Below are positions 1-47,743 of a DNA stretch of 64,000 nucleotides, piece by piece. This DNA is from a virus. Its lineage: Duplodnaviria; Caudoviricetes. The stretch's first letter is position 1; each line of letters begins with the position of its first letter. Both the position numbers and the translations under genes were made by a program. The notes under the pieces are model-generated. The model ran no database searches. It was given only the letters and a program-made list of their open reading frames with translations, and was not told where the DNA came from. The stretch lies in the IMG/VR virus record IMGVR_UViG_3300009082_000959; one strand, written 5' to 3'.

Positions 1-171
1 AAAAATCAACGTCACGGTTTGTGTAAAGAATATTATAAAAATGGTTATTTAAGGTTTGAATATAATTACTTCAAAAATCAACGTCACGGTTTGTGTAAAT
101 TATACTATAAAAATGGTAATTTAAGAAGGGAAAGATATTATATTAATGGAGTTATGACAAATGCAACCTAA
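1..171 (+). CDS. MORN_2/YwqK-like repeat protein, 3' part (runs off window start)
   Basis: Frame 1 reads KNQRHGLCKEYYKNGYLRFEYNYFKNQRHGLCKLYYKNGN...AT*; 72-nt unit repeated at 1 and 73. Confidence 0.8.
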   Translation, partial: KNQRHGLCKEYYKNGYLRFEYNYFKNQRHGLCKLYYKNGNLRRERYYINGVMTNAT

Positions 172-370
172 ACTAAGTGACAAAGACGCGAGCACAATGG
201 TAAAGTCATCTCTTGCCGTAATGTTTTTGGTTGCAAGTTTATTTTATTTTGCTTACACAGCAATGCAAAGTGAAGATTTTATTAGGGCCCTCACACTAAC
301 TATAACTGGTTCTATCGTAAGTATCATTTACTATGTTGGAATGAGGCGTATTGTTTTAAAACAAAAATAA
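161..370 (+). CDS. small membrane protein (2 predicted TM segments)
   Basis: Two hydrophobic stretches; overlaps upstream stop. Confidence 0.6.
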   Translation: MQPKLSDKDASTMVKSSLAVMFLVASLFYFAYTAMQSEDFIRALTLTITGSIVSIIYYVGMRRIVLKQK

Positions 371-382
371 CAGGAGATTAAA

Positions 383-619
383 ATGGAAGATATGATTCTT
401 GATGCAGGGGTTTTGGCGGCAGTGAATTCTATTAAGTTGAACGCGCTTAATAATACTTTGGCAAACGGAGTGCCGCGGAAACTAACTGACCAGCAAGCGT
501 TGAACATTTATGTTCGTTCTTACCAGTTGGCCAGAGATAGTTTTTTGCACCCGACGACTATAAATCAGAATGATTTGCGTCGTCAGATTAATTATTGTTA
601 CGAGCACAAGCGAGCGTAA
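383..619 (+). CDS. hypothetical protein
   Basis: SD AGGAG upstream; 78 aa. Confidence 0.6.
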   Translation: MEDMILDAGVLAAVNSIKLNALNNTLANGVPRKLTDQQALNIYVRSYQLARDSFLHPTTINQNDLRRQINYCYEHKRA

Positions 620-620
620 T

Positions 621-932
621 ATGAAAAAGATATTTGATTTTCTCAATAAATTGTGGAGAAATATCATTAATTTTTTGGGTTTTGGCGAGTGTCATTTTAT
701 TATTAGTGGCGTCAAGTGTGGCGGAAGAGTAAGGCGTGTGGCTATATTCAGTGGCACAATTACAATGCCAATGTGTAAAAAACATTTCAACGAACACAAA
801 AAGATAATGTTATTGCATCATATAGGATTAGATGTCGAAGACGTTCTTAAAATGTCTTCCGAAGAAAAAGAGCGCACTATCGGAGAGAAAAGCAAAGACC
901 TTATAAATAAACCACCAAAAATATATTGGTAA
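621..932 (+). CDS. hypothetical Cys/His protein, paralog of 19459-19725
   Basis: ATG at 621 just after the upstream stop; CGG.V...F...I..P.C..H..EH...LH...D.E.VLK shared with 19459. Confidence 0.65.
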   Translation: MKKIFDFLNKLWRNIINFLGFGECHFIISGVKCGGRVRRVAIFSGTITMPMCKKHFNEHKKIMLLHHIGLDVEDVLKMSSEEKERTIGEKSKDLINKPPKIYW

Positions 933-940
933 GTTTTGCA

Positions 941-1014
941 GCCGCCATATATCAATGGTAGATTGCCTGTTTTGTAATCAGGAGATGTAGGTTCGAGTCC
1001 TACTGGTGGCTCCA
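941..1014 (+). tRNA. trnT: tRNA-Thr (anticodon UGU)
   Basis: Acceptor GCCGCCA/TGGTGGC, anticodon loop TT-TGT-AA (973-975), T-loop GGTTCGAGTCC, encoded 3' CCA. Confidence 0.93.
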
Positions 1015-1031
1015 AACAAAAGGAAATTATT

Positions 1032-1553
1032 ATGCAAGAAAAAATATCTGACTTTGTTCATTATGCTTTGTCGTTCCCCAAAATAATTAAACAAAGGGTT
1101 ACTCATTTTTTTCGGTGGATTATAAAGTCTATTCAGTATTCCATTATACTATCCAACGATTCTGATTGGGATTATTCAAGTGTTTTAATGCTACTACATT
1201 ATAAATTACAGCGCATGAGGAAGGAGTTTTTGTCTGATAGAGCATTTGCCGCATGTAGGTTTGAGTCGGCTGCACAAATTAGACACGCAGAAAAGCTAAT
1301 AGAATATGTGCGTGACGGTCATCCAGAAGCCAATAAATTATCTGACGAGTATCACGAAAAGTGGGGAAATTTAAAACTTTTTGATGATGAAGGAAAATTT
1401 GTAGCGATGCCAGAAAAATCAAAAACCGAAAATCTAAAAGAAAGTAAGGATGAACTAATTGAAATGACCAATAAAGTTCGTGAGATTGAAGAAAAAAACT
1501 GGAACCTTTTGTTCGATCATTTAAAAAAATACTTACGAGATTGGTGGGACTAA
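1032..1553 (+). CDS. hypothetical phage protein
   Basis: 173 aa, SD AAGGA, ends DWWD. Confidence 0.7.
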   Translation: MQEKISDFVHYALSFPKIIKQRVTHFFRWIIKSIQYSIILSNDSDWDYSSVLMLLHYKLQRMRKEFLSDRAFAACRFESAAQIRHAEKLIEYVRDGHPEANKLSDEYHEKWGNLKLFDDEGKFVAMPEKSKTENLKESKDELIEMTNKVREIEEKNWNLLFDHLKKYLRDWWD

Positions 1554-1753
1554 TGGAAAACAAAAAAGAAGATGAGGAATTAGTTAATGATTTGGTTACT
1601 TTAATAAATGATTTCTATGACGATTTGCTTGGAAAATTGCCATCGTTTATTAGTAAGAAGATTCTAATTCCGTCCAAGGTAAAGAATTATGCAGAGAGAA
1701 TTATGAACATATCTCGAAAATATGTTACGGCTATTGTAGCCAACCACAAATAG
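1553..1753 (+). CDS. hypothetical protein
   Basis: TAATG overlap start at 1553. Confidence 0.55.
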   Translation: MENKKEDEELVNDLVTLINDFYDDLLGKLPSFISKKILIPSKVKNYAERIMNISRKYVTAIVANHK

Positions 1754-1760
1754 GAGTTGT

Positions 1761-2258
1761 ATGGCCAAATCAAAAATAAGATACATTAAGCAAGTCGATA
1801 GAACAAGTTGCGGACCAGTTGCCTTAATAAATGTTTTGAAATGGCTTGGGTGCGATGTGTCCTATAATAATTTCATATATATGTCGAAGTGTATATGTGA
1901 TTGGAAAGACCCTCGCTATGAAGAGGATGGCGGAGTAGTAAATGATGGTATGGATAAGGCTCTGAATTACTTTAAAATAAATTTCAAGGCAATAGACAAT
2001 CCCAAACTGTCTGACTTTGACACGCATCTTGAAAACGGCGGGGCAATCTTAATAAGTTATATACCTATATTAAACTCCAAAAAACATGAACAGTGCGGGC
2101 ATATTTCTTTTTGTATAGGTAAAAGTAGTAAAATGTATGTTATGGTTAATGACTGTTTTAATAAGACAATTATAAAAAGGCACGCAAGAACAATCGAAAG
2201 AATATTAAAAAGTAAAATAGACGATGCTGATTTCAAGGTTTGGCTTATATCGAGGTAA
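1761..2258 (+). CDS. peptidase C39-like cysteine protease
   Basis: QVDRTSCGPVALINVL (Q..C), GHISF (H), VND (D) triad pattern. Confidence 0.75.
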   Translation: MAKSKIRYIKQVDRTSCGPVALINVLKWLGCDVSYNNFIYMSKCICDWKDPRYEEDGGVVNDGMDKALNYFKINFKAIDNPKLSDFDTHLENGGAILISYIPILNSKKHEQCGHISFCIGKSSKMYVMVNDCFNKTIIKRHARTIERILKSKIDDADFKVWLISR

Positions 2259-2263
2259 TGTGA

Positions 2264-2599
2264 ATGAGAAAATCAAAAGAGGAAGCCGTAAATAATTTCA
2301 AGGAAAAGTGGGGCCTTACTGGAAAGCACTTTTACAGATTCGGTGACAACTTGTTTATTTTGTCAGTAAAAAAAGTCACAATTGAAAACCCAAGTTATGA
2401 AAACACATATGTAAGTTCTTCAATGATGACAGAACTAAACTCATTGAACTCGATATTAAAAATGATTAAAAAGCCTAAAACTAAATTTATAATAGATAGT
2501 CACAAAATGAATAGTGGTTTCTACAAGTGTGAAGTTTTTGATACATATGAAAAACTAAAAACTTATTTACTAATAAATAAATTAGCGGGATTAAAATGA
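2264..2599 (+). CDS. hypothetical protein (C-terminal LLINKLAGLK)
   Basis: 111 aa ORF in the + operon. Confidence 0.6.
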   Translation: MRKSKEEAVNNFKEKWGLTGKHFYRFGDNLFILSVKKVTIENPSYENTYVSSSMMTELNSLNSILKMIKKPKTKFIIDSHKMNSGFYKCEVFDTYEKLKTYLLINKLAGLK

Positions 2600-3021
2600 C
2601 ACTTTTACGCGATGCAATGACTGCTTACTTATCAGGACTTACCACCAAAAAGACTGATAAGGAAATATGGTGGGAAAACAAACGCGGTGAAAAAATTACC
2701 GTAGAGTTGGTAGATGCAGATTTGGAAAAATATATAGTAAGACACTACCATGAAAATGGTAATTTAATGTTCGAAGATAATTTTATTAAAGATCTTTTAT
2801 GTGGTGTTGGGAAAATGTGTGATATAAATGGCAACACAGAGCTTGAATACGAATGCTACGATGGAAAATTTCACGGTTTTTATAGATGCTATTGGTGTGA
2901 TGGCAATATAAGGACAGAACTTTTATATAAGAATGGTCTCTTGCACGGCTTATGCAAATATTATAACGAAGACGGAATCTTAACAAACACAATCAAATAC
3001 ATAAATGGAGAACGACAATGA
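2596..3021 (+). CDS. MORN_2 repeat protein with conserved leader
   Basis: MTLLRDAMTAYLSGLTTK..KEIWW...KITVELV leader followed by HG.C..Y..NG repeats. Confidence 0.85.
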   Translation: MTLLRDAMTAYLSGLTTKKTDKEIWWENKRGEKITVELVDADLEKYIVRHYHENGNLMFEDNFIKDLLCGVGKMCDINGNTELEYECYDGKFHGFYRCYWCDGNIRTELLYKNGLLHGLCKYYNEDGILTNTIKYINGERQ

Positions 3022-3338
3022 ATGACGCTAATGTGAAGAAACTATTTAGAAAGTTTAAGTTGTTTATGAACAAGAAACGAACTGGTGAAATAAACTGCCG
3101 AGATGAACTATATGATATTATTTTTAATTTGTGTAATGAACTTCAATCGGCCACTCTTCCTGATAATTTCTTTGTAACTCATATTGGCGAAAAGTATGGC
3201 AAACTACAATTTTACACCGTGTCTGGAAATATGAGCACACGATTTATTATTGAGAAATATGTTGAGCAATCGGAAGAACTTATAGAAAGTCTTACTCCTG
3301 AAACCGTTGTTGTTTGCGATGAAACCACCGAACAATGA
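3018..3338 (+). CDS. hypothetical phage protein (EKYGKLQFY motif)
   Basis: Motif resembles QVKEKMGEMKMY in 61332-62012. Confidence 0.55.
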   Translation: MNDANVKKLFRKFKLFMNKKRTGEINCRDELYDIIFNLCNELQSATLPDNFFVTHIGEKYGKLQFYTVSGNMSTRFIIEKYVEQSEELIESLTPETVVVCDETTEQ

Positions 3339-3535
3339 AAATAAAAAAACTACCTGAAAATTGGCCGTTCGTAACAAACCAGCAACAAGAGTTGGGTTTA
3401 ATTAAAATGCACGCGCATAGTAGAATATCAGTATCGATATTTAAATCTTGTTGCAAAAAACTTGTGGATGAAAATTTTGTTTCTATTGGCCAAGCCAAGA
3501 AAGTTGTAAGACGGTTTCTAAAATTAAGGAACTAA
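3335..3535 (+). CDS. hypothetical protein
   Basis: ATGA overlap with upstream gene. Confidence 0.5.
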   Translation: MKIKKLPENWPFVTNQQQELGLIKMHAHSRISVSIFKSCCKKLVDENFVSIGQAKKVVRRFLKLRN

Positions 3536-3536
3536 T

Positions 3537-3968
3537 ATGACACTATTACACGATGCAATGACTGCTTACTTATCTGGCTTGACTACCACAAAGAATGAAA
3601 AAGAAATTTGGTGGCAGGATGGATTTGGCGATAAAATTACCGTAGAGTTGGTGGATGCTGATTTAGAAACATATATTGTGAGAAGATATTCAGAACACAA
3701 CTATACACTACTTTATGAGGTAAATTTTAAGAAAGACCAGCGCCACGGACCAAGTAAATCATATTATGGAGATGGCAATCTGTGGATAGAGAATAATTAT
3801 CTTCGAGATAAACGACACGGACTATGCAAAGAATATTCAAAAAACGGAAGAGTGTTCGCAGAATATAATTATCACAAAGATAAACTGCACGGTTTATGCA
3901 AATATTATAACTCGCGTAGCGGAAAAATTCGCGAAGAAAAATATTGTAAAGGTAAATTATGTCAATAG
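3537..3968 (+). CDS. MORN_2 repeat protein with conserved leader
   Basis: MTLLHDAMTAYLSGLTT leader plus three MORN-type repeats. Confidence 0.85.
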   Translation: MTLLHDAMTAYLSGLTTTKNEKEIWWQDGFGDKITVELVDADLETYIVRRYSEHNYTLLYEVNFKKDQRHGPSKSYYGDGNLWIENNYLRDKRHGLCKEYSKNGRVFAEYNYHKDKLHGLCKYYNSRSGKIREEKYCKGKLCQ

Positions 3969-4627
3969 AAATTGAGTATGAAAAATTACGATCCGCTTTG
4001 AGATATTGGCTTTACGGCAAAGGATATCATAAAGCGGTTAAAGCAATGGAGTATGCCGCCAAGTATCATAAGGGATTGCGTAAGGATGGCGTTACTCCTG
4101 AATTTTATCATCAACTTTGTATTGCTGGATATGTTAGAACCCTTCACTTAATTTATTCAGAAGAGACTATGGCCACTGCTTTTCTTCACGACCTCATAGA
4201 AGACTATGATATATCTGCGTCCGAGTTAGAGCGTCAATTTGGAAAAGAAATAGCGTTCCCCGTATCATTGTTAAGTAAGCGTAGGGATGGTTATACAATA
4301 GAAAACACCCCATACTACCTTAATATTTGCAATGATCCTATTGCATCAGTTGTGAAGGGCGCCGATCGTATTCATAATTTCCAAACCATGATTGGCGTAT
4401 TTGACATCACAAAACAAAAAGAGTATATAGAGGACTGCAAGGTTGGTTTGTTGCCGATGCTAAAAAAGGCCAGACGAAAATTTCCAGAGCAAGAACCAGC
4501 TTACGAAAACATTAAACACGCATTATTAAGTCAAATAGATTTAATAGAATGTTTGCATAAATATTTTGATACAGCAAGTAATCCGAAGAATGATTTAATA
4601 ACCGCGCCGGAGAAAAGAGTTCCGTGA
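3959..4627 (+). CDS. HD-domain (p)ppGpp hydrolase-like protein (SpoT/Mesh1-type small alarmone hydrolase)
   Basis: A.KYH.G.RKDG.TP...H, AFLHDLIED, VKGADRIHN motifs. Confidence 0.8.
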   Translation: MSIEIEYEKLRSALRYWLYGKGYHKAVKAMEYAAKYHKGLRKDGVTPEFYHQLCIAGYVRTLHLIYSEETMATAFLHDLIEDYDISASELERQFGKEIAFPVSLLSKRRDGYTIENTPYYLNICNDPIASVVKGADRIHNFQTMIGVFDITKQKEYIEDCKVGLLPMLKKARRKFPEQEPAYENIKHALLSQIDLIECLHKYFDTASNPKNDLITAPEKRVP

Positions 4628-4851
4628 TGACTGTTTTGCACGATGCAATGACTGCGTATCTGTCGGGTTTAGCTACCAAAAAGAATGACAAAGAGATTTG
4701 GTGGGTAGATAAGTATGGAGAGAAAATTACCGTAGAGTTGGTCAATGCAGATTTGGAAACACACATAATAAGATATTATTGCGAAGATGGTAGTTTGCAG
4801 CGTGACAAATTTGGTTTTGTAAAATCTTATTTCAAATTATTGAATTCATAA
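4627..4851 (+). CDS. truncated MORN-family protein (leader, almost no repeats)
   Basis: MTVLHDAMTAYLSGL leader then diverges after RYYCEDG. Confidence 0.7.
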   Translation: MTVLHDAMTAYLSGLATKKNDKEIWWVDKYGEKITVELVNADLETHIIRYYCEDGSLQRDKFGFVKSYFKLLNS

Positions 4852-4884
4852 TATTTCATTAATCTCTAACAAAAGGAAAAAACA

Positions 4885-5226
4885 ATGACTGATGGAAAGC
4901 CGATGACTACTGACCGAATTGATGTCCTCATGGTTGAGGGCGCGAAAGAAAACTATGACACTGTGGTTGATAAAATCACTCAACTGTATAATCACAACAT
5001 GCATAAGGCTTATGAAAAGTTTAAAGTTTCCATGGTAAAGGATGCCAAACTTGGATGGGCTCTTATTTTTGAGGGCGAGCGTGAGGAAAATAAAACCGAG
5101 ACCGCAGAGAGAGAGGCCAAAGAGTTTGCTACGAGAAAGCGTCTGGAAGACGCCGAGTTGAAGGAATATTTAAAACTTCACAAAAAATATGGGAAAAAGT
5201 GCGATGACGGATGTAAATGTTCATGA
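4885..5226 (+). CDS. hypothetical protein
   Basis: SD AAGGA, 113 aa. Confidence 0.6.
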   Translation: MTDGKPMTTDRIDVLMVEGAKENYDTVVDKITQLYNHNMHKAYEKFKVSMVKDAKLGWALIFEGEREENKTETAEREAKEFATRKRLEDAELKEYLKLHKKYGKKCDDGCKCS

Positions 5227-5521
5227 TGTAATGGCAGCTTACTTGGCGGGTCTTGTCACCAAACTCAACGAAAAAGAAATATGGTGGCAAGACAAGAATG
5301 GATATAAAATTACCGTAGAATTAGTAGATGCTGATTTAGAGACATATGTAGTAAGAGAATATCACAGGCGTGGAAGATTATGGTATGAAGAAAACTATCT
5401 TAATGACCAACTACATGGTTTGCGCAGAATATATGATAGAAGTGGCAAATTATATTTAGAAGAAAACTACTGCGAAGGTCGAGTTATTGATTCAAAGAAA
5501 TACCTTGATGATGGTGATTAA
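5204..5521 (+). CDS. MORN_2 repeat protein with conserved leader
   Basis: HDVMAAYLAGLVTKLNEKEIWWQDKNGYKITVELV; start uncertain. Confidence 0.75.
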   Translation: MTDVNVHDVMAAYLAGLVTKLNEKEIWWQDKNGYKITVELVDADLETYVVREYHRRGRLWYEENYLNDQLHGLRRIYDRSGKLYLEENYCEGRVIDSKKYLDDGD

Positions 5522-5586
5522 TTTCTATTATAATGGTGAAAAGATTTCTCACAAAAATATAATATACAAAATGGAAAAATAATACA

Positions 5587-6621
5587 ATGGTAGATAAAGA
5601 AAAGTTAGATTCAATTTTTAAAAATATCAGTAGTGAATTGCCCGTTGGAATTCTAATACATCCCTCGCCGGACCCAGATTGTTTGGGCGCCGCGGCCGGA
5701 TTTACGATATTTCTACAACATGCTTATGGAATTTCCAGCAAAATATATCACCTTGGAGAGATTAGTCATCCACAAAATAAATCCTTAAAAAATGTTCTTC
5801 ACATAAACCTCGAAGAAGGAAAAAGTTTTGACCACACAAAAGTTTCTGCAACCGTTTTGCTTGACACTGACCTGACAAATTCTGGATTTAAAAATGAAAA
5901 GTTTATTAAATCAACTGTTAGAATCGATCATCATGATACTGATAGGGACGAAGAGTCAGAGTTGGAGGATGTAAGGCAAACTGGCTCAACCTGCGCTATT
6001 ATTTGGGAATATCTTAAAGAGTTTGATATCCCAATGGAAGAGTATCCTGATGTTGCTACTGCTTTGGTTTTAGGGATTAAGACGGATACTGTTGATTTTA
6101 CCAGTAACGCTACGACAGAATTAGATATGCAAGCGTTTAGATTGCTTTTACCGTTTGTTGCCAAAGACAAATTAGCAAAGGTGACTCAATTTCCTTTGCC
6201 CAAAATTGTATTTGAGGCAGAGACCAGAGCGTATAAAAACAAAGAAACTCGTAATGCTACACTCACTGCTTTTGCTGGCGAACTAACCCAGCTTAATAGA
6301 GATGTCATTCCTACAATTGCAGATAGGTTTGCAAGAATGGATGGTATTAATACTGCGGTAATTCTTGGTATCATAGGAAACAATATAGTTGCCAGCGTAA
6401 GAAGTAGTGACCAAAGAGTTGATGTTGCTGACTTTTGTGTGAAAGTTTTTGGAAAGGCACATGCTGGCGGCCGTGAAGGTGCCGGCGGAGCATCTGTTCC
6501 TTTGGGTTTAGCGTTTGAAATTCTTTCTGGAAAAGAGGTTAGAGATGTAATAATAAAGGAAATTATTTCTGCTTTCTCTTTGAAAATATTTACTACACTT
6601 GGAGAGTATGAGGCAAGCTAA
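5587..6621 (+). CDS. DHH/DHHA1 phosphoesterase (NrnA / cyclic-dinucleotide PDE-like)
   Basis: HPSPDPDCLGAA, LLDT, RIDHH, C-terminal GGREGAGG. Confidence 0.85.
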   Translation: MVDKEKLDSIFKNISSELPVGILIHPSPDPDCLGAAAGFTIFLQHAYGISSKIYHLGEISHPQNKSLKNVLHINLEEGKSFDHTKVSATVLLDTDLTNSGFKNEKFIKSTVRIDHHDTDRDEESELEDVRQTGSTCAIIWEYLKEFDIPMEEYPDVATALVLGIKTDTVDFTSNATTELDMQAFRLLLPFVAKDKLAKVTQFPLPKIVFEAETRAYKNKETRNATLTAFAGELTQLNRDVIPTIADRFARMDGINTAVILGIIGNNIVASVRSSDQRVDVADFCVKVFGKAHAGGREGAGGASVPLGLAFEILSGKEVRDVIIKEIISAFSLKIFTTLGEYEAS

Positions 6622-6980
6622 TGGCAAAACCAAAACTGACAGATACGCAAAAGAAAACCCTTGCAAACCTGGAATGGTTTATTAAGAATGAAATTGTTTG
6701 GGATGGAAACAAAGATTTAAGGGACGCAGTATTGGATGGGCACATAGCCGTATTCTCCATTAGGGGCGACGAAAGAGTTTTATACAGAGTAGCTCCTTCA
6801 AGAAATTATTTCGATACACTTGTGATGACCGACACAAAAGAAAACGCAAAATTGATTATGAAATATAATCTTACAACCAAATCTATTATGGTTGATATGT
6901 TAAGACTATATACAATGGAAGAAATGTGTCGTTCTTTTGTTCCTGACTTATTTCGTTACGGGGTTAGAAATGAAATATGA
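6621..6980 (+). CDS. hypothetical protein
   Basis: TAATG-coupled, 119 aa. Confidence 0.6.
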   Translation: MAKPKLTDTQKKTLANLEWFIKNEIVWDGNKDLRDAVLDGHIAVFSIRGDERVLYRVAPSRNYFDTLVMTDTKENAKLIMKYNLTTKSIMVDMLRLYTMEEMCRSFVPDLFRYGVRNEI

Positions 6981-7407
6981 AACATCTATTGGTATAGTCC
7001 CCGTTAGAAAAGACGGGGACGAATACAAATTTTTATTGCTTTGTTCATATAGGTATTGGTGTTTCCCAAAGGGCCGCGTAGATTCAAAAGACCAAAGCGA
7101 ATTGGAAACTGCCTTACGAGAAACTGAAGAGGAAACAACTATTACTCCAAGGGATTTAGATTTTAGGTGGGGAAAAGATTGCTATACTACCGAACAATTT
7201 AAAACAAAAATTGGCCGTAAGACTGATAAATTTTTCATAGCAGAGACCAGTGTTGAAAAAATTTTTTTGCCAATTAGCCTTGAATTAGGAAAACCAGAGC
7301 ACGATAGATACGCTTGGGTTAGTTATGATGACGCTAAAAAAATGGTAAATGAAAGAATTGGAAAAGTTTTAGATTGGGCTAACGACAAAATAAAAGAGAC
7401 AAAATAA
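6970..7407 (+). CDS. Nudix hydrolase (Ap4A hydrolase-like)
   Basis: WCFPKGRV...ETALRETEEET Nudix box; EHDRYAW. Confidence 0.85.
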   Translation: MKYETSIGIVPVRKDGDEYKFLLLCSYRYWCFPKGRVDSKDQSELETALRETEEETTITPRDLDFRWGKDCYTTEQFKTKIGRKTDKFFIAETSVEKIFLPISLELGKPEHDRYAWVSYDDAKKMVNERIGKVLDWANDKIKETK

Positions 7408-7964
7408 TGGAAAAATTAAGCGAAGTAACGGTTTTGGCAATATACTGTTCCTACTACTCTAAAACTGCAAAGCAATATGCTGAAATGTTTTGTAGATTAT
7501 CTGGAATAAACTCCTCACAAAACAAGGAAGAAATTATTAAAGCGGCCTCTATTGGTTTGGAAATTATTGGAGCACCGGAGCAAACAGAATGTGGTGATAT
7601 TTTTACGCCAATTCCAGACGCAATAAAAAAACTTGATTGGTTGATAGAAAAATACAACCATCGTATGTCAAATGGATGGACGCGGTCAGCAAAACAATTA
7701 GAGAATTCCATTGAAAAATTAAAAAATCGTATAGGTAATGCAAAAGTATCCGAAGTCAATCAAAATCAAATAGGATATGTTGGCACAACGGGTGTTGACG
7801 AAAAATATATTAACAAGCTAAATAAAATGTCTGACTTCAAAAGAAAGCTGCGAATGAAAGAAAAAGAATACATAGGGGCACTTGGTAATAAAGAGGAAAG
7901 AAATAGTTTGGAAAAACAAATAGAAGACTTACGAAACGAAATTTATAGCATCAAGGATGAATGA
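7407..7964 (+). CDS. hypothetical protein
   Basis: 185 aa, coiled-coil-like C-terminus. Confidence 0.6.
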   Translation: MEKLSEVTVLAIYCSYYSKTAKQYAEMFCRLSGINSSQNKEEIIKAASIGLEIIGAPEQTECGDIFTPIPDAIKKLDWLIEKYNHRMSNGWTRSAKQLENSIEKLKNRIGNAKVSEVNQNQIGYVGTTGVDEKYINKLNKMSDFKRKLRMKEKEYIGALGNKEERNSLEKQIEDLRNEIYSIKDE

Positions 7965-8298
7965 TATGACAAACGAAGAAATAGAAATGATTGCGGCGAT
8001 AGAGAAAACTCTAATACGACGAAAAGAATGTAATGACTCTTCATTGGAATGTGTTATCCTATGCAATGGAAAAAGAATCTCAATCAAAAACAAGTCTGTG
8101 TGGAAATCAAGGGGTTACGCAATAGCAGCAATAAACAATATGATAAACTATGACCGTAGTTGGAGCTATGCAATACGCCATATGTCCTCTGACACGCAAT
8201 TAAAAGAAAAGGTAGTAGATAATTTTGCTGCATCTTTGGTGGTAATGCCTTTGCGAGATTATATGTATGTCGAGTATATGAGGTCAAACAAAAAATGA
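7957..8298 (+). CDS. hypothetical protein, tandem paralog 1 of 3
   Basis: ILCNGKRISI..KSVW motif. Confidence 0.65.
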   Translation: MNDMTNEEIEMIAAIEKTLIRRKECNDSSLECVILCNGKRISIKNKSVWKSRGYAIAAINNMINYDRSWSYAIRHMSSDTQLKEKVVDNFAASLVVMPLRDYMYVEYMRSNKK

Positions 8299-8696
8299 AA
8301 AACAGCATTGATATTAAAGACTTGATAGTAAATGAAGAAGAACTAAAAAGTAAAATAGCGGTAGAGATGGAGAAAAAATTTGTAGAGTGTGATGACCAAG
8401 ATTCATATGTGATACTATATCATGGCAAAAGAATGTCAATAGATGGAGAATCTGTGTGGCCATCCGAAAGTGCGGCCAAAAGATATATGACCAAGAACAC
8501 AGTAAAATGCGGTGGAAAGTGGCATTTAAAAGATTTTTTCTTTAGGCTTCTTATACCCAAAATAAAAGAAGACGCATATTATTATGGTGTTATTATATCC
8601 GATAATTTAATTAAAATATATCAAGATTTAGGTAAATCTTTTAAAGAGCAATTCGAAATCGTTTCACTAAAAGAATATATAAAGAGAAACCAATGA
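8295..8696 (+). CDS. hypothetical protein, tandem paralog 2 of 3
   Basis: ILYHGKRMSI...SVW; ends FKEQFEIVSLKEYI. Confidence 0.65.
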   Translation: MKNSIDIKDLIVNEEELKSKIAVEMEKKFVECDDQDSYVILYHGKRMSIDGESVWPSESAAKRYMTKNTVKCGGKWHLKDFFFRLLIPKIKEDAYYYGVIISDNLIKIYQDLGKSFKEQFEIVSLKEYIKRNQ

Positions 8697-15644: not shown

Positions 15645-15998
15645 ATGACACTATTACATGACGCAATGGCAGCATATTTGTCTGGTTTAACTACCAAAAA
15701 GAATGAAAAAGAGATATGGTGGTGGGATGAATCTGGATATAAAATTACAGTAGAATTGGTAAATGCTCGGTGGGAAAAGTATATAGTAAGATATTATTAT
15801 GACAACGGTAATCTATCGTCTGAATACAATTACTTCAAAGGTCAGTATCATGGTTTGTGCAAAGGTTACTGTGACAATGGTAATTTAAGGTCTGAATACA
15901 ATTACTTCAAAGGCCGGCGCCATGGTTTGTGCAAATATTACTATGACAATGGTAATTTAAGGTCTGAATATAATTACAACCACGGAAGTTTAAGATGA
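15645..15998 (+). CDS. MORN_2 repeat protein with conserved leader
   Basis: MTLLHDAMAAYLSGLTTKKNEKEIWW leader. Confidence 0.85.
   Translation: MTLLHDAMAAYLSGLTTKKNEKEIWWWDESGYKITVELVNARWEKYIVRYYYDNGNLSSEYNYFKGQYHGLCKGYCDNGNLRSEYNYFKGRRHGLCKYYYDNGNLRSEYNYNHGSLR
15798..15977 (+). repeat. 72-nt tandem repeat, 2.5 copies (MORN units)
   Basis: T(A/G)TGACAAYGGTAAT...TCTGAATAYAATTAC at 15798, 15870, 15942. Confidence 0.85.
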
Positions 15999-16144: not shown

Positions 16145-16178
16145 ACCCCAAAAACAATTACAACCACGGAAAATTAGT

Positions 16179-16604
16179 ATGACACTATTACACGATGCAA
16201 TGACAGCCTATTTGGCTGGGCTTACTACCAACCGCACTGAAAAAGAAATTTGGTGGGAAAACGAACGGGGAGATAAACTTACCGTAGAGTTGGTAAATTC
16301 AAGGTGGGAAAAATACATAGTAAGGCAATACTATGATAATGGTAATTTGTGGTGGGAAGAAAATTATCTTAAAGACAAACTGCATGGTTTAAACAAAACA
16401 TGCTATAAAAATGGTAATTTGGTGCATGAAATAAATTACCGCAAAAATCAACGACATGGCTTATGTAGGTGGTGTTGGGAAAATGGTAACCCACGGTGGA
16501 AACAAAATTATTACAAAGGAAAACTACATGGTTTGTGCAGAGCGTATTATGAAAACGGTAATTTAAAAGCAGAGTATAATTACAACCACGGAAAACAAAT
16601 ATGA
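16179..16604 (+). CDS. MORN_2 repeat protein with conserved leader
   Basis: MTLLHDAMTAYLAGLTT at 16179. Confidence 0.85.
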   Translation: MTLLHDAMTAYLAGLTTNRTEKEIWWENERGDKLTVELVNSRWEKYIVRQYYDNGNLWWEENYLKDKLHGLNKTCYKNGNLVHEINYRKNQRHGLCRWCWENGNPRWKQNYYKGKLHGLCRAYYENGNLKAEYNYNHGKQI

Positions 16605-20494: not shown

Positions 20495-20508
20495 AGTAGG
20501 AGTTCAGT

Positions 20509-26118: not shown

Positions 26119-26120
26119 GT

Positions 26121-29106: not shown

Positions 29107-29472
29107 ATGATAGAGCAAATATCTGGAATGGAACTGTGTGTATTTTTAAATCCATCAAATAGTATAGTTACTGTGCATTTCTTTGACCGCGGAAACAAAG
29201 CAGGTAAGCCAGACATAATGGCTTACCTACAAAGAGATATGTCTTGGGATGTCAGAAGAGTTGTTGGAGAAACATCTGTGCTGGAAGCAAACAGAGAAAT
29301 TGTGTCAATAAATCATGAATCATTGGGAATAGAATTGAGTGGCAATGACTTTGATAAATTTGTAAGAGCAGGAACAAAACAAATTATAGAGTCTCTTGGC
29401 AAAGAAAATGGCATCATAGAAATTAGCGAAGCCGCAGACATATTGGAAAACAATTCTTACGGAGATGATTGA
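29107..29472 (+). CDS. hypothetical protein
   Basis: ATG 29107 with GGGG SD. Confidence 0.55.
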   Translation: MIEQISGMELCVFLNPSNSIVTVHFFDRGNKAGKPDIMAYLQRDMSWDVRRVVGETSVLEANREIVSINHESLGIELSGNDFDKFVRAGTKQIIESLGKENGIIEISEAADILENNSYGDD

Positions 29473-29795
29473 TGTCACTTTTGCATGATGCGATGACAGC
29501 CTGGTTAGCAGGACTTACTACTAAAAAGAATGAAAAAGAAATCTGGTGGCAGGACGAGGATGGTTTTAAAATTACCGTAGAATTGGTAAATTTAAGGTGG
29601 GAAAAGTATATAGTAAGACACTACTTTAAAAATGGTAATCTGTATCGTGAAGATAGTTATATGAAAGACAATCCACACGGTTTGTGTAAAAGTTACTGGG
29701 AAAATGGTAATTTAATGTGTGAATACAATTATCTCAAAGGCAAATTTTGTGGTCCGTGCAAACATTATTTAGAGAATGGAAAATTAATTCCATGA
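29472..29795 (+). CDS. MORN_2 repeat protein with conserved leader
   Basis: MSLLHDAMTAWLAGLTTKKNEKEIWW. Confidence 0.85.
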   Translation: MSLLHDAMTAWLAGLTTKKNEKEIWWQDEDGFKITVELVNLRWEKYIVRHYFKNGNLYREDSYMKDNPHGLCKSYWENGNLMCEYNYLKGKFCGPCKHYLENGKLIP

Positions 29796-30073
29796 CACTT
29801 TTACACGACGCCTACACTGCTTACTTGTCTGGCCTGACCACCAAACTCAACGAAAAAGAAATTTGGTGGCAGGATAAGTATGGTTTTAAAATTACCGTAG
29901 AATTAGTTGGTGTAGATTTGGAGACATATGTGGTAAGGTATTTTTATGAAGATGGAAATCTGAGGTTTGAAATGAATTATTGTAAAGACGAAAGACATAG
30001 TCTTTGTAAATGTTTTTTTGACAACGGAATTTTGGGCTGGACAAAGAACTTTAACGGGAGTGATCAAATTTAG
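29792..30073 (+). CDS. MORN_2 repeat protein with conserved leader (short)
   Basis: MTLLHDAYTAYLSGLTTKLNEKEIWW. Confidence 0.8.
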   Translation: MTLLHDAYTAYLSGLTTKLNEKEIWWQDKYGFKITVELVGVDLETYVVRYFYEDGNLRFEMNYCKDERHSLCKCFFDNGILGWTKNFNGSDQI

Positions 30074-33934: not shown

Positions 33935-33968
33935 GGTTGCATATGCCTGAAAGCATATGCAGCCTTTT
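33935..33968 (+). terminator. 12-bp hairpin plus T4 (terminator or IS left-end hairpin)
   Basis: GGTTGCATATGC-CTGAAA-GCATATGCAGCC-TTTT. Confidence 0.55.
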
Positions 33969-34031
33969 AGGTATCGAATATATTTATGTTTTCCATTGAC
34001 AATTGTTGACAAACGGTATATTATTATAATA

Positions 34032-35429: not shown

Positions 35430-35789
35430 ATGATAGTATTGCATGACATGATGGTTGCGTATTTGTCTGGTTTGGCGGAAGAAGTTGATGGAGAAATTTT
35501 TTGGGAGAATGTTTCTATTAAACTTTTGGACGCAGAAACAGAAACATATATTTACAGTGAATATGACAGCAATAAAATCAAACGCAGAGAAATGTTAAGG
35601 GTTGGTGAAACCGTAAGTGGTAAGGCTTGTTGGTGGGACAGTAGAGGTCGTTTAGTTGCAGAGTCACTATACAAAGATGGCCTATTAAACGGAACATCAA
35701 TTAGTTTTAATACCGATGGAACTATTAGAAAAAAATCTATTTATAAAGATGGAAAGTTATTGGATATAATCTATGACAGTTTTGCATGA
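35430..35789 (+). CDS. divergent MORN-family protein
   Basis: MIVLHDMMVAYLSGL leader; G.....W...G....E..YKDG.LNG. Confidence 0.75.
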   Translation: MIVLHDMMVAYLSGLAEEVDGEIFWENVSIKLLDAETETYIYSEYDSNKIKRREMLRVGETVSGKACWWDSRGRLVAESLYKDGLLNGTSISFNTDGTIRKKSIYKDGKLLDIIYDSFA

Positions 35790-36132
35790 TGCGATGACAG
35801 CCTACTTGTCTGGCTTGACTGCCAAAAAGAATAAAAAAGAAATCTGGTGGCAAGACAAAAATGGATATAAAATTACCGTAGAATTAGTAGATGCTGATTT
35901 AGAGACATATATAGTAAGAGAATACTATGACAATGGAAAACTATGGTTTGAAATGAATTATTGCAAAGACCAATTGCATGGTTTGCTTAAATGCTATAAT
36001 GATAATGGTAATTTAGCGTGGGAATACAATTATTTAAAAAGCCAGCGTCATGGTTTGTGCAAACATTACTATGACAATGGTAATTTGCGGACACAATATA
36101 ATTACAATAACGGAAAACGAACACAAATATGA
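35773..36132 (+). CDS. MORN_2 repeat protein with conserved leader
   Basis: MTVLHDAMTAYLSGLTAKKNKKEIWWQDKNGYKITVELV. Confidence 0.85.
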   Translation: MTVLHDAMTAYLSGLTAKKNKKEIWWQDKNGYKITVELVDADLETYIVREYYDNGKLWFEMNYCKDQLHGLLKCYNDNGNLAWEYNYLKSQRHGLCKHYYDNGNLRTQYNYNNGKRTQI

Positions 36133-36560
36133 TACTTTTGTATGATGCACTGACAGCCTATTTGGCAGGACTTACTACTAAACTCAACGAAAAAGAAATT
36201 TGGTGGAAAAATGAATTGGGTAAAAAGATTACTATTGAGTTGGTAAGTTTGCGTTGGAAAAAATACACAGTGAGATATTATTATGACAATGGTAATTTGT
36301 GCTGTGAGTTAAATTATAATAAAGACGACCAACGGCACGGTATGTGTAAATGGTATTACGAAGATGGTAATTTGCACCATGAATTTAATTACTATAAAAA
36401 TCAATTACATGGTTTGTGTAAATCTTATTATGAATACGGTAATATTTCAGAAGAATTTAATTACCATAAAGGCTACCGACATGGATTAAATAAATGGTAT
36501 AATTTAAATAGTAACATAATTTTAGAGGAAAATTACAAACACGGAATACCACATGATTGA
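36129..36560 (+). CDS. MORN_2 repeat protein with conserved leader
   Basis: MILLYDALTAYLAGLTTKLNEKEIWW. Confidence 0.85.
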   Translation: MILLYDALTAYLAGLTTKLNEKEIWWKNELGKKITIELVSLRWKKYTVRYYYDNGNLCCELNYNKDDQRHGMCKWYYEDGNLHHEFNYYKNQLHGLCKSYYEYGNISEEFNYHKGYRHGLNKWYNLNSNIILEENYKHGIPHD

Positions 36561-38609: not shown

Positions 38610-39201
38610 TAAAGAGTTTGCAAATATAATGAACAATGCAAAAGATTTAACAATTGGGCAAGTATTTAAAATAATTACTCATCTTAAATTCAAAACAGTG
38701 GCCGCCGTTGTTGCTTTTTTTGTGGCGATCGTATCAGGTTCTTTTGTGATAGGTAGATATTCCTATCAAGAAAAAACGGCACTTACCCTCGATAGTCCAT
38801 TTGGTATGAGGTTGCTGATAAGTGAAAAACAATACGAATTCAAAAACCTAATCTTAATGGAAGACCCAATTAATTTGGCAGACAATAGTGTAATACTAAC
38901 TATACGAGAAATACAAAATGCCTTTGATATAGTTCCGATAGGAAAAATAGTTGCACGAAAAGAAAAAATTGAGTTGCCAGGAGTTTTTGGGTTGTTCAAT
39001 TTTAAGTCAATCGGAGTGGCCAAAGCATCAGAAGAGTTTAATTGGAACGGCCACGAGAACGATATGAATTTTAAGGAAGTATTTATTGATAGCAACACTA
39101 TAAACAGATACTACGAAGACGGTTGTATTTTAGAGTATAAAGTTTGCGAGGATAGAAAATCTAACAAAGGTTCTTTTAGATGGATACAACAAAATCATTA
39201 A
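38602..39201 (+). CDS. membrane-anchored hypothetical protein interrupting the mini-gene array
   Basis: TM segment TVAAVVAFFVAIVSGSFVIG. Confidence 0.65.
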   Translation: MINKEFANIMNNAKDLTIGQVFKIITHLKFKTVAAVVAFFVAIVSGSFVIGRYSYQEKTALTLDSPFGMRLLISEKQYEFKNLILMEDPINLADNSVILTIREIQNAFDIVPIGKIVARKEKIELPGVFGLFNFKSIGVAKASEEFNWNGHENDMNFKEVFIDSNTINRYYEDGCILEYKVCEDRKSNKGSFRWIQQNH

Positions 39202-40629
39202 TGCAGGGTAGTATGAAAAATTTATACCGCGATGTATTTAAACATAATTTTTATGCAAAGGAAGTATATATTATTGAATGTTATACTTTAATTCGGTGTT
39301 TAAATAACCATCACGAATATGAAGTTTATCACTGTTACTTTAAATAAAGGACATTATTAATGCAATCAGAAATGATGAATGTATTTAAATGTGGAAATAG
39401 AATAAATGCTATTTGGATTATGGAAGGATATGTTGATATTTATTTTAAAGATTCTTTTTGGTATTCTTATTTTTTAGGTGCGCTTATTTTGAATAACGGA
39501 GTCACAAATGCAATCAGATATGATAGCTTTATACTGTGATGTATTTAAATGTAATTGTAAGATATCAAGTTATAAAATATTACCAAAATTTCGCGCAAGT
39601 TATGGAACACACAGAAACCACATTAGAGTAAGTTGCGAGGGATCATCACAACATGATTTTTATATTATTTGGTATAAAAAATGATGCAACCAGAAATGAT
39701 AAGATTATATAAAAATATGTTTAAATGTCATTACAAAATAGTAGAGCATTACTTTATAGAAAACAACAGTGATAATAAAAAATGGGTAGTTGTAAGGGCT
39801 AATGGTGGGTTTCCATATTATACTGCTCACTTTATTGAGTGTGCAAATGAATAATATACAATCATTGATGGGAAATAATATGAAAATGCTGTATGCCGAT
39901 GTATTGAATCGTGGCCTTAAAATTGTGAAAGCGCCCATTTTTCGTGGCAAATTTATGTATATTTTCGTCGAGGTTGGTCCGGGAAGAAATGTATGTAGTA
40001 TATTTCGCTGCACAATTTAGGTGAGAAGACAATGCAATTTTATATGAAACAATTATATTGCGATATTTTTATGAGAAAATATAAAATAATAAGTTATAGT
40101 GATGAATTAAGATATGTTAATTCTAATGAAAAAATTATTGAAATAGTTTGCGGTGAGAATGGGTATATTTATCATTATTCTATCCATCACAAATAAGGAA
40201 ATCTACTAATGCAATTTTATATGAAAGTGTTATATCGGGATTATTTTAAATATGGATATAAAATAAACAATGTATATATCGATGATTTATCTAATGATAT
40301 TTTAAATATTTATTGTCATACATGTGAGTATCAAACATATACCATTAGAATTGGCTTTAATTATATATATGACATATGAAAAGTATATAATTAAAGCCAA
40401 TTGATATTTATAAAAGTTTAAATTTATGTATGTTTGTTTTAAAGATTTAATGTAGCTTACTCATATACTATAAGGTTTAATAAAAATGCAATATAGTATG
40501 AGACAATTATATATAGATATATTTAAATATGGAGAAAAGCCAAAAAGTGCTACTATATCACATAAAAAAATTGTGATATTTAGTTCATATGGTGATTCGC
40601 TACTTAGATATACGATAGATTTAGTTTGA
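39201..40629 (+). other. mini-gene array B: 8 ORFs plus one decayed unit
   Basis: Starts 39201, 39360, 39508, 39684, 39868, 40032, 40209, 40486; e.g. MQSDMIALYCDVFKCNCKI, MQYSMRQLYIDIFKYG. Confidence 0.85.
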
Positions 40630-40919: not shown

Positions 40920-43639
<2,720 letters not shown>

Positions 43640-45411: not shown

Positions 45412-45434
45412 TAAACATTTATAGCTATAAAATT

Positions 45435-45460
45435 GGCCGACTTTTTGTCGGCCTTTTTAT
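45435..45460 (+). terminator. Rho-independent terminator
   Basis: GGCCGAC-TTTTT-GTCGGCC followed by TTTTTAT. Confidence 0.75.
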
Positions 45461-45472
45461 TTTGGGGCCGAC

Positions 45473-45697
45473 ATGATTTATAATACGATAAGTATAGAAG
45501 TATTTTCAAAACAATTAAAAGAATCATTGAGCGAGAGAGTGGAAAAATTTTCCAAACATATGGAAGAAAAATTTAAAAATAATCCGGAATCATCTACCCT
45601 AAAATCTAAACAAGATTGGATGGTAGAGTATCAAAAATGGATAGTAGCAGAGAGTATAAAGAAAAGTTGCATAGACTACATTGGAGAGACACAATGA
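45473..45697 (+). CDS. hypothetical protein
   Basis: 74 aa. Confidence 0.5.
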   Translation: MIYNTISIEVFSKQLKESLSERVEKFSKHMEEKFKNNPESSTLKSKQDWMVEYQKWIVAESIKKSCIDYIGETQ

Positions 45698-46317
45698 GAA
45701 TAGTTTGTATTTCTGATACACATAGAAATCACAGGAACATTAATGTTCCAGATGGTGACGTTCTGGTTCATGCTGGTGATATAGGATTAGAAAAATGTCA
45801 TCCGGGGTTAGTGTCCGACTTTAATGGTTGGCTTGGTAATTTGCCTCACAAGCATAAAATTATTATTCCAGGCAATCACGATTACTACATAGAAAGATTT
45901 CCAAAAGAAGTTAGAGAACAACTCACTAATTGTAATCTTTTAATAGACCAATCAATAATGGTAAAGGGTATTAAATTTTATGGTTCTCCTTGGCAACCAG
46001 AATTTTTTAATTGGTCTTTTAATCTGCCGCGGGGTGAAAGATTAAAAAAAGTGTGGGATAATATTCCAAGTAGCACTGATATACTAATTACGCATGGACC
46101 TCCTGCTGGAATTTTAGATAAAACTTACGATGGATTATCTGTTGGGTGCAAAGATTTGCTTGAAAGAATTGACGCCTTAAAATTGAAAGCGCATATATCA
46201 GGACATATTCATTTCTCGTATGGCTCTGTGAAAATTGGAGATACTACTTTTGTGAATGCCAGCCTGTGCGATGATAGAAATATTTTAATAAATGAACCAA
46301 TAGTAATAGATATTTAG
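45694..46317 (+). CDS. calcineurin-like metallophosphoesterase (MPPED-like)
   Basis: ISDTH, HAGD, PGNHD, LITHGPP, SGHIH. Confidence 0.88.
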   Translation: MRIVCISDTHRNHRNINVPDGDVLVHAGDIGLEKCHPGLVSDFNGWLGNLPHKHKIIIPGNHDYYIERFPKEVREQLTNCNLLIDQSIMVKGIKFYGSPWQPEFFNWSFNLPRGERLKKVWDNIPSSTDILITHGPPAGILDKTYDGLSVGCKDLLERIDALKLKAHISGHIHFSYGSVKIGDTTFVNASLCDDRNILINEPIVIDI

Positions 46318-46324
46318 GTAAAAA

Positions 46325-46678
46325 ATGATAGTTTTACACGATGTATATACTGCATATTTGTCTGGTTTGACTACCAAACTCAACGAAAAAGAAATTTGGT
46401 GGAAAACTCCTTACGGATTAAGTGTTACAGTAGAATTGGTTAATGTTCGGTGGGAAAAGTATATTGTTAGACGATATTGGAGCAATGGTAATGTATGCTG
46501 GGAAAGAAATTATTATAAAGATAAACAGCACGGTTCAGACAAAAGTTACTATGAAAATGGCAGTATATGGCTTGATGCCAACTGGTGTAAAAACCGTTTA
46601 AACGGTTGGATAAGTGAATATTGTAGCGACGGAACATTAATATACAAACAAAATTACAAACACGGAAAATTACTATGA
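46325..46678 (+). CDS. MORN_2 repeat protein with conserved leader
   Basis: MIVLHDVYTAYLSGLTTKLNEKEIWW. Confidence 0.85.
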   Translation: MIVLHDVYTAYLSGLTTKLNEKEIWWKTPYGLSVTVELVNVRWEKYIVRRYWSNGNVCWERNYYKDKQHGSDKSYYENGSIWLDANWCKNRLNGWISEYCSDGTLIYKQNYKHGKLL

Positions 46679-47163
46679 CAGATTTACATATAATGATGAC
46701 TAATTATCTTGCCTTAGCAGCTAAACAAAAAACTGATATGACACTTTTGCACGATGCCTACGCAGCATATTTGTCTGGCCTTACCACTAAAAAAAATGAA
46801 AACGAAATTTGGTGGAAAACCAAGGATGGATATAAAATTACCGTAGAATTGGTAAATTTAAGATTGGAAAAATATATTGTAAGGGACTACTATGATGACG
46901 GTAGTTTGTGGAGCGAAGAAAATTATCGCAAAGGCCAATTACACGGTCGGCGTGTGAGTTATTTTAAAAATGGCAAGTTAAGATGTGAAGAAAATTATTA
47001 CAACAGTCAATTACACGGTTTGTATAAAGAATATTATGAAGATGGTAGTTTAATGTTCAAAATAAGTTATGACAAAGGTCAATTACATGGGCCAATAATA
47101 GAATACCGTGATGGCAATATATATAGTACAACCACGGACAAAGAATATGACACTTTTACATGA
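46675..47163 (+). CDS. MORN_2 repeat protein with duplicated leader (second start 46738)
   Basis: MTDLHIMMTNYLAL...KTD-MTLLHDAYAAYLSGL. Confidence 0.8.
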   Translation: MTDLHIMMTNYLALAAKQKTDMTLLHDAYAAYLSGLTTKKNENEIWWKTKDGYKITVELVNLRLEKYIVRDYYDDGSLWSEENYRKGQLHGRRVSYFKNGKLRCEENYYNSQLHGLYKEYYEDGSLMFKISYDKGQLHGPIIEYRDGNIYSTTTDKEYDTFT

Positions 47164-47743
47164 CGCCTACACTGCTTATTTGGCTGGTTTGACTACCGAA
47201 ATAAAAGCTGGAATATTATGGAAAGATGAACACGGAATAAATGTGGTCATTAAAATAATTGATGCTAAAAAAGAAACATATAGGGTTCGTTATTACCACA
47301 AAAATGGAACAGTCGTTAATGAAAAACACTACAAAGGTAATTTTTTACACGGGCAATCGATAGAAAGATATACATCGGGAAAAATAAAAAAGATAAGTAA
47401 TTTCAATAAAGGCATTGAATGCAAATTTTCCATAGTATATGATAAATTTGGCCAAAAAATAATAGAAGAAACCTTTAATAATAAGGGTGCGCCTATTGAT
47501 ATAAAAAGATACGCAGATGGTAAAATATATTTTCATATGGTAACTATTTCAAAAAATACTCGTGATGTAGAACATTATGATGAGAATGAAAACAAATGCC
47601 GTGTAGATAGATTTTGTGATGGGAACCTTATCTGCAAAACAGAATACCACATTAATGGCAAAATAAAGAGCATAAGACGTCACGGGGAATTCATTGCATA
47701 TGATACAGAGGGTAATATTATAGAAAGAAAAATTTATGAATGA
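47147..47743 (+). CDS. divergent long MORN-family protein
   Basis: MTLLHDAYTAYLAGLTT at 47147, then degenerate repeats. Confidence 0.75.
   Translation: MTLLHDAYTAYLAGLTTEIKAGILWKDEHGINVVIKIIDAKKETYRVRYYHKNGTVVNEKHYKGNFLHGQSIERYTSGKIKKISNFNKGIECKFSIVYDKFGQKIIEETFNNKGAPIDIKRYADGKIYFHMVTISKNTRDVEHYDENENKCRVDRFCDGNLICKTEYHINGKIKSIRRHGEFIAYDTEGNIIERKIYE

Follow-up and report, generated by a model that had tools for sequence, protein, structure and literature searches.

A rare conserved leader opens the proteins of a mosaic MORN-repeat gene family in a large uncultured tailed phage

Why should a tailed phage maintain many genes for MORN-repeat proteins that all open with nearly the same N-terminal segment, and what does this segment do? 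The question is raised by IMG/VR virus record IMGVR_UViG_3300009082_000959 (Duplodnaviria; Caudoviricetes), of which a stretch of 64,000 nucleotides (nt) was analysed (the window, numbered from its first letter). The original prediction, made from the sequence, described fifteen genes with a conserved leader of about 45 residues followed by MORN_2 units, and proposed a recombining adaptor family with a constant docking leader and a variable binding surface. The leader, the family and its recombination are documented below. The reading favoured here, to which we give an even chance, is that of an old, segment-exchanging gene family encoding diversified intracellular binders of host proteins, with the leader as their constant end.

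Translation from the given starts places the leader at the beginning of all 14 listed + strand open reading frames (ORFs), whose products range from 74 to 198 amino acids (aa). A hidden Markov model (HMM) of the leader alone, run over every six-frame ORF of 25 aa or more in the whole window (1,346 in all), matched precisely these 14 starts (E 1.4e-35 to 1.3e-21) and nothing downstream of position 47743. The module is real but somewhat longer than first thought, comprising 49 residues that end in Y-I-V-R; its 49-column alignment has a mean column identity of 73%, and M1, D6, A10, L12, G14, L15, I24 and W26 are invariant. Pfam detects MORN_2 (PF07661) alone in the bodies of the members and no family over the leader: six of the ten members tested exceed the gathering cut-off of 29.6 bits (34.0–51.1 bits), three fall just under it (22.2–28.5 bits) and the 74-aa g4627 has no Pfam match. 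The start ATG of most members overlaps or abuts the preceding stop (ATGA or TGATG form), an arrangement typical of tightly packed phage operons. The members and an associated remnant are as follows.

1..171, + strand: 3' end (repeat-only tail) of the fifteenth member; the full ORF, 7142-7576 on contig L003, opens with its leader 264 nt before the window begins.
2596..3021, + strand: g2596, 141 aa, leader plus about four MORN_2 units (MORN_2 35.8 bits; leader E 1.9e-34).
3537..3968, + strand: g3537, 143 aa (leader E 4.5e-34).
4627..4851, + strand: g4627, 74 aa, mini member with the leader and a single extra strand pair (leader E 4.1e-34).
5204..5521, + strand: g5204, 105 aa, alternative start 5189; nt 5297-5347 identical to 35860-35910.
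15645..15998, + strand: g15645, 117 aa; one 72-nt unit has recently been duplicated in tandem at 15793-15977 (leader HMM, Pfam, repeat scan).
16156..16178, + strand: orphan MORN 3'-end remnant in frame 2 (N-Y-N-H-G-K-L-V-stop), abutting the start of g16179.
16179..16604, + strand: g16179, 141 aa, the protein chosen for modelling (mean predicted local distance difference test score, pLDDT, 97.1; predicted template modelling score, pTM, 0.87).
29472..29795, + strand: g29472, 107 aa, its stop overlapping the next member's start (ATGA; leader HMM).
29792..30073, + strand: g29792, 93 aa (leader HMM).
35430..35789, + strand: g35430, 119 aa, divergent leader with a shortened hairpin (leader E 1.3e-21).
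35773..36132, + strand: g35773, 119 aa, sharing a 51-nt tract with g5204 (leader HMM, tract test).
36129..36560, + strand: g36129, 143 aa, with 72-nt periodicity at 36328-36484 (leader HMM, Pfam).
46325..46678, + strand: g46325, 117 aa (leader HMM).
46675..47163, + strand: g46738, leader ATG at 46738 (141 aa) in an ORF that opens at 46675; weak second match to HMM positions 1-16.
47147..47743, + strand: g47147, 198 aa, divergent leader and the longest repeat body (leader E 5.6e-27).

Further copies lie beyond the window. The tail at 1-171 had been taken for the end of a fifteenth member, and an independent Joint Genome Institute (JGI) contig that carries g2596 (L003; 62,478 bp, 100% identical to window 1-8462 with zero mismatches) shows the same ORF with a full leader. 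Upstream of it, L003 encodes two members of 102 and 207 aa, the longer one having a divergent leader, and, at 5534-6046, a 170-aa protein in which a WGR domain is followed by a complete internal leader and then by MORN units; this fusion is the phage's only copy with the leader away from the N-terminus. A second stretch of the same JGI contig (L008) adds three members (165, 165, and 296 aa), located among RtcB, RNA ligase, Ro60/TROVE, HD and NADAR genes. All fifteen genes of the original count are thereby accounted for, but the family extends further, with at least six more copies upstream on the same phage and at least 21 leader-bearing genes in total across about 82 kb (the contig being sampled in part).

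Conservation of the leader acts on the protein and not on the DNA, because silent sites are saturated while replacement differences in the leader are low. Among the 14 alignable copies, the proportion of silent differences (pS) is near saturation, at 0.62 in the leader and 0.75 just after it, and because of this saturation the paralogs are judged from their sequences to be old. Purifying constraint is about twofold stronger on the leader than on the first repeat, the proportion of replacement differences (pN) being 0.14 in the helix, 0.18 over the whole leader and 0.39 in the first repeat of the same 14 copies. Mean per-position entropy is 0.71 bits in the leader vs. 1.80 bits in 25 stacked repeat units, and on both measures a constant leader plus a variable surface is an apt description of these proteins. 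The repeat unit itself combines a fixed frame (Y2, N5, G6, L8, E11, N13, Y14, K16, H20, and G21) with highly variable positions (1, 3, 4, 9, 10, 12, and 15). Position 23 of the unit is Cys in 13 of the 25 units (H-G-L-C-K), an unusual richness in this residue, and relatives of the family on contigs L002 and L005 have H-G-K-S/Y-I; the His/Cys pair of each unit could, judging from the motif, bind metal.

The copies have exchanged segments. All four pairings of two upstream leader blocks (KL or KK) with two downstream blocks (DLET or RWEK) had been reported, and they stand at codon level: g5204 has KL with DLET, g46325 KL with RWEK, g35773 KK with DLET and g29472 KK with RWEK. The L-type block is written CTC with a linked silent AAC in g5204, g29792, g36129, and g46325, and it combines with both the D-L-E-T and the R-W-E-K blocks, which themselves differ at several codons. 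K-type copies have AAG or AAA with AAT, the upstream copy u3315 encodes the L as CTT with AAT, and g16179 and u7142 carry R-T (CGC ACT) at the K/L block. The pairwise homoplasy index (PHI) is significant on nucleotides (p=0.0005), with one character per codon or amino acid (about 0.009) and on third positions only (0.009–0.017). On the third positions of the leader alone it is not significant (p 0.10–0.48), and the recombination signal comes from the leader and first repeat jointly and from specific tracts. One tract is globally significant in a permutation test (p 0.0005): g5204 (5297-5347) and g35773 (35860-35910), genes 30 kb apart which differ upstream of it, are identical over 51 nt that include 34 polymorphic sites.

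Distance matrices for three segments of the alignment (nt 1-72, 73-147, and 148-216) are uncorrelated (Mantel r -0.07 to 0.12), and every segment rejects the trees of the others (Shimodaira-Hasegawa and approximately unbiased tests, p<0.01). The summed likelihood gap is 71.8, vs. 18.5 +/- 4.5 (maximum 29.5) in a null of 43 replicates simulated on one shared topology with segment-specific branch lengths, a number of replicates that bounds p at 0.023 (z about 12). A mosaic and not a tree-like genealogy is supported because the gap between segment trees far exceeds the single-tree null, and the PHI result and the shared tract agree with the recombining family that had been proposed.

Repeat number changes through unit-wise tandem duplication. 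In g15645 the duplicated stretch has a period of 72 nt, that is one MORN unit, with 2.6 copies at 85% identity; in g36129 an older duplication of the same period has 2.2 copies at 72% identity. Upstream of the full leader of g46738, positions 46675-46737 hold an in-frame, diverged 21-codon duplicate of the leader helix, which public gene calls include in a longer 162-aa form (P0002). This helix duplicate and the orphan MORN 3' end before g16179 are traces of unequal exchange. A 49-codon mini-ORF (15995-16144) lies between g15645 and the orphan 3' end, and the arrangement at 15995-16178 suggests an insertion into the final part of a MORN gene.

Structure prediction places the leader at the opening of the repeat sheet. 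With a 40-sequence family alignment, AlphaFold2 models g16179, at the high scores listed above, as a helix (residues 3-12) followed by strands 23-27, 33-40, 45-51, and 57-64 onward in one continuous meander; the strands recur every 12 residues or so and are predicted to form a single-layer antiparallel beta-sheet of approximately 23-residue hairpins, as in MORN_2. The model of the 74-aa g4627 (pLDDT 82) shows the same helix and four strands, with 86–93 over residues 1-60 and a disordered tail, and the ESM Atlas's own model of this protein is poor. When the g4627 model was compared with the PDB, the best match (Z 4.8) stayed within noise, and the leader mini-domain has no convincing solved look-alike. 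All matches from fold searches are sheets of the MORN type or other single-layer sheets (SET7/9, MORN1, TarM, OspA, and many giant-virus and phage MORN proteins), the best atlas matches being MORN and MORN_2 proteins (TM by query 0.67–0.79), and the sequence profile aligns with PDB entries from profile position 58 onward only. The idea that the leader hairpin is a recognizable degenerate MORN unit was dropped after hhalign of the leader against the stacked repeat units found no similarity (probability 0.3%). The leader is thus predicted to be the first part of the sheet, yet in sequence it stands apart as a module of its own, not as a decayed repeat, because this comparison finds nothing. A homodimer prediction with two copies of g16179 and its alignment, run without controls, scored 0.00, which speaks neither for nor against a dimer.

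How widespread is this module? The leader profile, searched alone with HMMER against 1.84 billion cluster representatives, matched 71 proteins at E<=1e-3, 25 of them at E<=1e-10. Several of the 71 are this phage's own proteins. At least five of them, the long, weak, multi-stretch matches P0042, P0050, P0063, P0064, and P0070, were rejected as noise (WD40, ankyrin, propeller or Ig-repeat proteins). The remaining matches are short proteins that open with the leader at residue 1; MORN_2 units come next or, in some, a WYxNG...HRxDGPA repeat. The leader is rare, being found in about 60 metagenomic clusters, and the ten clusters looked up are all metagenome-only with 1–3 members each. A pattern scan of 185,579 species genomes gave 8 pattern matches and none confirmed, the pattern being narrow and the test weaker than the profile search; it joins the metagenome-only clusters in speaking against a domain that occurs broadly in cellular YwqK proteins. 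PHROGs, NCBIfam, PADLOC, and Pfam have no family for the leader, scans of viral contigs with one member and with the leader alignment gave no confirmed relative, and an ESM Atlas feature search using the leader gave no usable match. The relatives' contigs that were read are listed here.

L001, 5.3-kb contig: 2 adjacent leader-bearing ORFs, with RNA ligase and HD genes close by.
L002, 9.4-kb contig: 11 leader-bearing ORFs, with PurF-like and LAGLIDADG genes.
L005, 312-kb contig, of which 20 kb was read: 12 leader-bearing ORFs, three of them with the second repeat type, and GroEL, a mini-gene array and a tail-fibre gene.
L006, 2.2-kb contig: 1 leader-bearing ORF, leader-MORN fused to peptidyl-tRNA hydrolase.
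L007, 2.6-kb contig: 5 leader-bearing ORFs in a row.

All of these contigs look phage-like, with packed, co-directional small genes and phage-type enzymes, and the leader genes are often arranged as arrays. The leader family is a hallmark of a group of large uncultured phages, because its arrays recur on phage-like contigs. The same leader precedes either MORN_2 units or the second repeat type (WYLNG-HREDGPA), leader-only mini proteins recur in other phages, and L006:751-1794 is a single 347-aa ORF that joins the leader, MORN units and a full peptidyl-tRNA hydrolase domain.

In the window nearly all genes lie on the + strand. The neighbors of the members (DNA ligase, helicase, NUDIX, DHH, HD, and RNA-repair genes) are not virion genes. 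GroEL (42041-43639), a TnpB-like protein and several homing endonucleases of the HNH/CapR type are encoded in the window, together with a DNA ligase that is ATP-dependent, a helicase of the Dda/PIF1 type and a MoxR-type ATPase that has a VWA/metallopeptidase partner; ClpP is encoded by the same phage. Pfam-annotated gene lists for L002, L003, L004, L005, and L008 place no toxin family beside members; their neighbors are further members, short ORFs and enzymes that act on nucleic acids. A Megablast search of INPHARED with window 20000-27000 gave no match, that is, no near relative among deposited phages. The stretch is present in one public DNA run, a freshwater-sediment metagenome from which the window itself may come, with no RNA run listed. 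Scans around the clusters for sigma-70 promoters (79 vs. 68.5 +/- 9.3) and terminators (88 vs. 86.9 +/- 9.2) are at chance level and therefore uninformative on timing.

Several other features of these surroundings deserve mention. Paralogous HNH/CapR-type homing-endonuclease genes (phrog_559) stand between and after the genes for the MoxR-type AAA ATPase and the DUF2201 VWA/metallopeptidase, and a third paralog lies immediately before GroEL (the set is at 20509-21588, 21694-22719, 23639-24820, 24958-26118, and 40920-42041). The phage has two TnpB-like genes with a Cas12f1-like TNB domain, at L008:1592-2650 and, just upstream of the MORN cluster at 35430-36560, at window 33957-35198. A gene for an HD_4 (RelA/SpoT-type HD) hydrolase lies between members at 3959-4627 and another lies near the family on the unrelated contig L001 (4556-5191), which could reflect shared synteny or a functional link. 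Long back-to-back runs of ORFs of 45–70 codons form mini-gene arrays at 37300-40400 and 54900-60800, and a similar run adjoins the MORN array of the 312-kb relative L005. On L008 (record 10168-31058) the three family members are interleaved with an RNA-repair set that includes Ro60/TROVE with vWA, RtcB, RNA ligase, and tRNA-ligase CPD-like, KTI12/AAA_33 kinase-like, and NADAR genes.

What might such proteins do? As diversified intracellular binders they would be the products of a multigene family in which copies arise, are lost and trade segments with one another, with all copies placed in what appears to be the non-structural part of the genome and encoding small, probably soluble MORN_2 beta-sheet proteins. 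The 49-residue module (predicted amphipathic helix 3-12, beta-hairpin 23-27 and 33-40, and a strand ending Y-I-V-R) would open the single-layer sheet. MORN_2 hairpins of 24 residues, from one up to about seven, would continue it, and in each of them hypervariable positions are set within a fixed frame (Y, NG, L, E, NY, K, HG). Within the infected cell the family may serve as a panel in which each protein binds or inhibits a host protein of its own, possibly a defense effector or toxin, after the precedent of the Bacillus subtilis MORN_2 protein YwqK; the leader would be the constant working end of these proteins, serving as fold nucleus and sheet cap and probably also as a shared contact surface. 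The members appear, from sequence and model, to have no signal-peptide-like start. This reading is the most economical one because YwqK binds and neutralizes a toxin and the genes lie with replication, nucleotide and RNA-repair genes. Several points weigh against it. The gene lists around members show no toxin gene adjoining any copy, and the analogy with YwqK is therefore one of repeat type alone. The structure is a prediction, and the strong conservation of the leader may reflect folding needs alone.

That last doubt about the leader corresponds to a tentative alternative, possible though not the one we would choose, in which the leader is a purely structural N-cap that shields the first edge and face of an otherwise open single-layer sheet and is conserved for folding and solubility, with no common partner. 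The predicted register of the leader hairpin with the MORN sheet (pLDDT above 90), the hydrophobic or Gly character of many conserved positions (L4, A10, L12, G14, L15, I24, W26, and L38) and the fact that no partner was found all agree with a cap. Four observations, however, lean towards the leader being more than a cap, although none is decisive and together they are no proof: the invariant or near-invariant polar residues D6, E23, T35, E37, and R49 are kept across distant phages; several phages keep mini proteins that comprise hardly more than the leader; the leader is kept in front of a second repeat type; and it is also kept internally after WGR.

The adaptor model of the original prediction, in which the leader docks all paralogs on one phage or host machine, such as a protease, chaperone or ATPase, to which different targets are brought by the variable repeats (the way in which poxvirus ankyrin-PRANC and F-box adaptors operate), draws on the constant module joined to variable repeats, on the existence of leader-only members and on the ClpP, GroEL and MoxR-type ATPase with VWA partner of the same phage, L005 too pairing the family with GroEL. 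Against this, the leader is predicted as an integral part of the sheet instead of a free handle, and no candidate machine is singled out by co-variation or conserved adjacency; we hold this model to be unlikely. Its more specific form, in which recombining substrate adaptors would plug into a ClpP-type protease or a chaperone/ATPase and capture and remove host defense proteins, seems to us decidedly unlikely; if true, the docking family would correspond, in a bacterial virus, to the ankyrin/F-box adaptors of poxviruses. A capsid-targeting or packaging signal, which would make these proteins injected cargo, would fit the pattern of the T4 internal-protein loci, a hyperplastic region in which variable bodies carry a conserved N-terminal peptide, yet it is very improbable: the genes lie among replication and RNA-repair genes and not head genes, and the leader is predicted to fold into the domain and also occurs internally after WGR.

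Huge phages spend much of their DNA on small genes without assigned function, and here one such family has a clear design, in which a phage-restricted conserved N-terminal module is joined to a variable repeat surface whose diversity is kept by exchange. If the proteins are the diversified binders of host proteins favored here, they would constitute a natural, compact and confidently modeled scaffold library, as well as a route to the host factors or defenses that huge phages must neutralize. The leader gives metagenome searches for the family a specific sequence handle, and pull-downs a defined target.

To our knowledge YwqK is the only bacterial MORN_2 protein that has been studied. It is the immunity protein of YwqJ, an LXG deaminase toxin of the type VII secretion system b (T7SSb), with which it co-purifies and which it neutralizes. 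YwqK and the phage members are both small soluble proteins of MORN_2 units, and IMG names one leader-bearing relative 'antitoxin component YwqK'. Unlike YwqK, the phage family is multi-copy and phage-borne with no toxin gene adjoining the copies, and its leader has no detectable counterpart outside the 60 or so metagenomic clusters, the likeness to YwqK having been compared at the repeat only. The eukaryotic MORN proteins (SET7/9 N-domain, 1h3i/1mt6; MORN1, 6t4d/6t68/6t69; radial spoke RSP1) share the single-layer antiparallel sheet of hairpin repeats, and the repeat body matches SET7/9 in sequence (E 4e-6) and solved MORN structures in Foldseek (TM 0.4–0.53); this resemblance is restricted to the repeat body, whereas residues 1-57 of the phage model are without counterpart.

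Other viruses join a constant end to variable proteins. The poxvirus ankyrin-PRANC and F-box adaptors combine a constant end module with variable repeats, PRANC having Skp1 as its partner; the likeness to the phage family is one of architecture only. The T4 internal proteins are variable small proteins that carry a conserved N-terminal segment, the capsid-targeting sequence, and are encoded in a plastic genome region. They resemble the phage family in this conserved segment, but the phage leader, which has 49 residues, is predicted to fold as part of the domain, is encoded away from the head module and can occur internally.

Expansion of MORN repeats has itself precedents. In Fusobacterium, MORN2 families have expanded by local duplication and comprise cellular proteins with signal peptides that are surface-exposed or secreted (Manson McGuire et al., 2014; PMC4222103). 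As in the phage, these are large variable families in which local duplication occurs and recombination between units alters repeat number; the phage leader differs in being a conserved folded module that does not appear signal-peptide-like, with its acidic D6 and predicted folded helix. Annotations of giant viruses and of uncultured tailed phages commonly include MORN-repeat genes, and one paper on pandoraviruses names MORN genes along with ankyrin and F-box genes. Giant viruses (Orpheovirus, Pithovirus, Hyperionvirus, and pandoraviruses) share the expansion of a repeat family, and many viral MORN models match the phage fold; unlike the phage, giant viruses and poxviruses have eukaryotic hosts, and no cap sequence in common with them was found. 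A literature search found no paper on a phage MORN family with a conserved N-terminal module. Given the precedents for MORN_2 expansion in Fusobacterium and giant viruses, the novelty lies in the leader itself, which is unnamed, rare and restricted to phage-like metagenomic contigs, in its pairing with two repeat types and in the demonstrated mosaic evolution of the copies.

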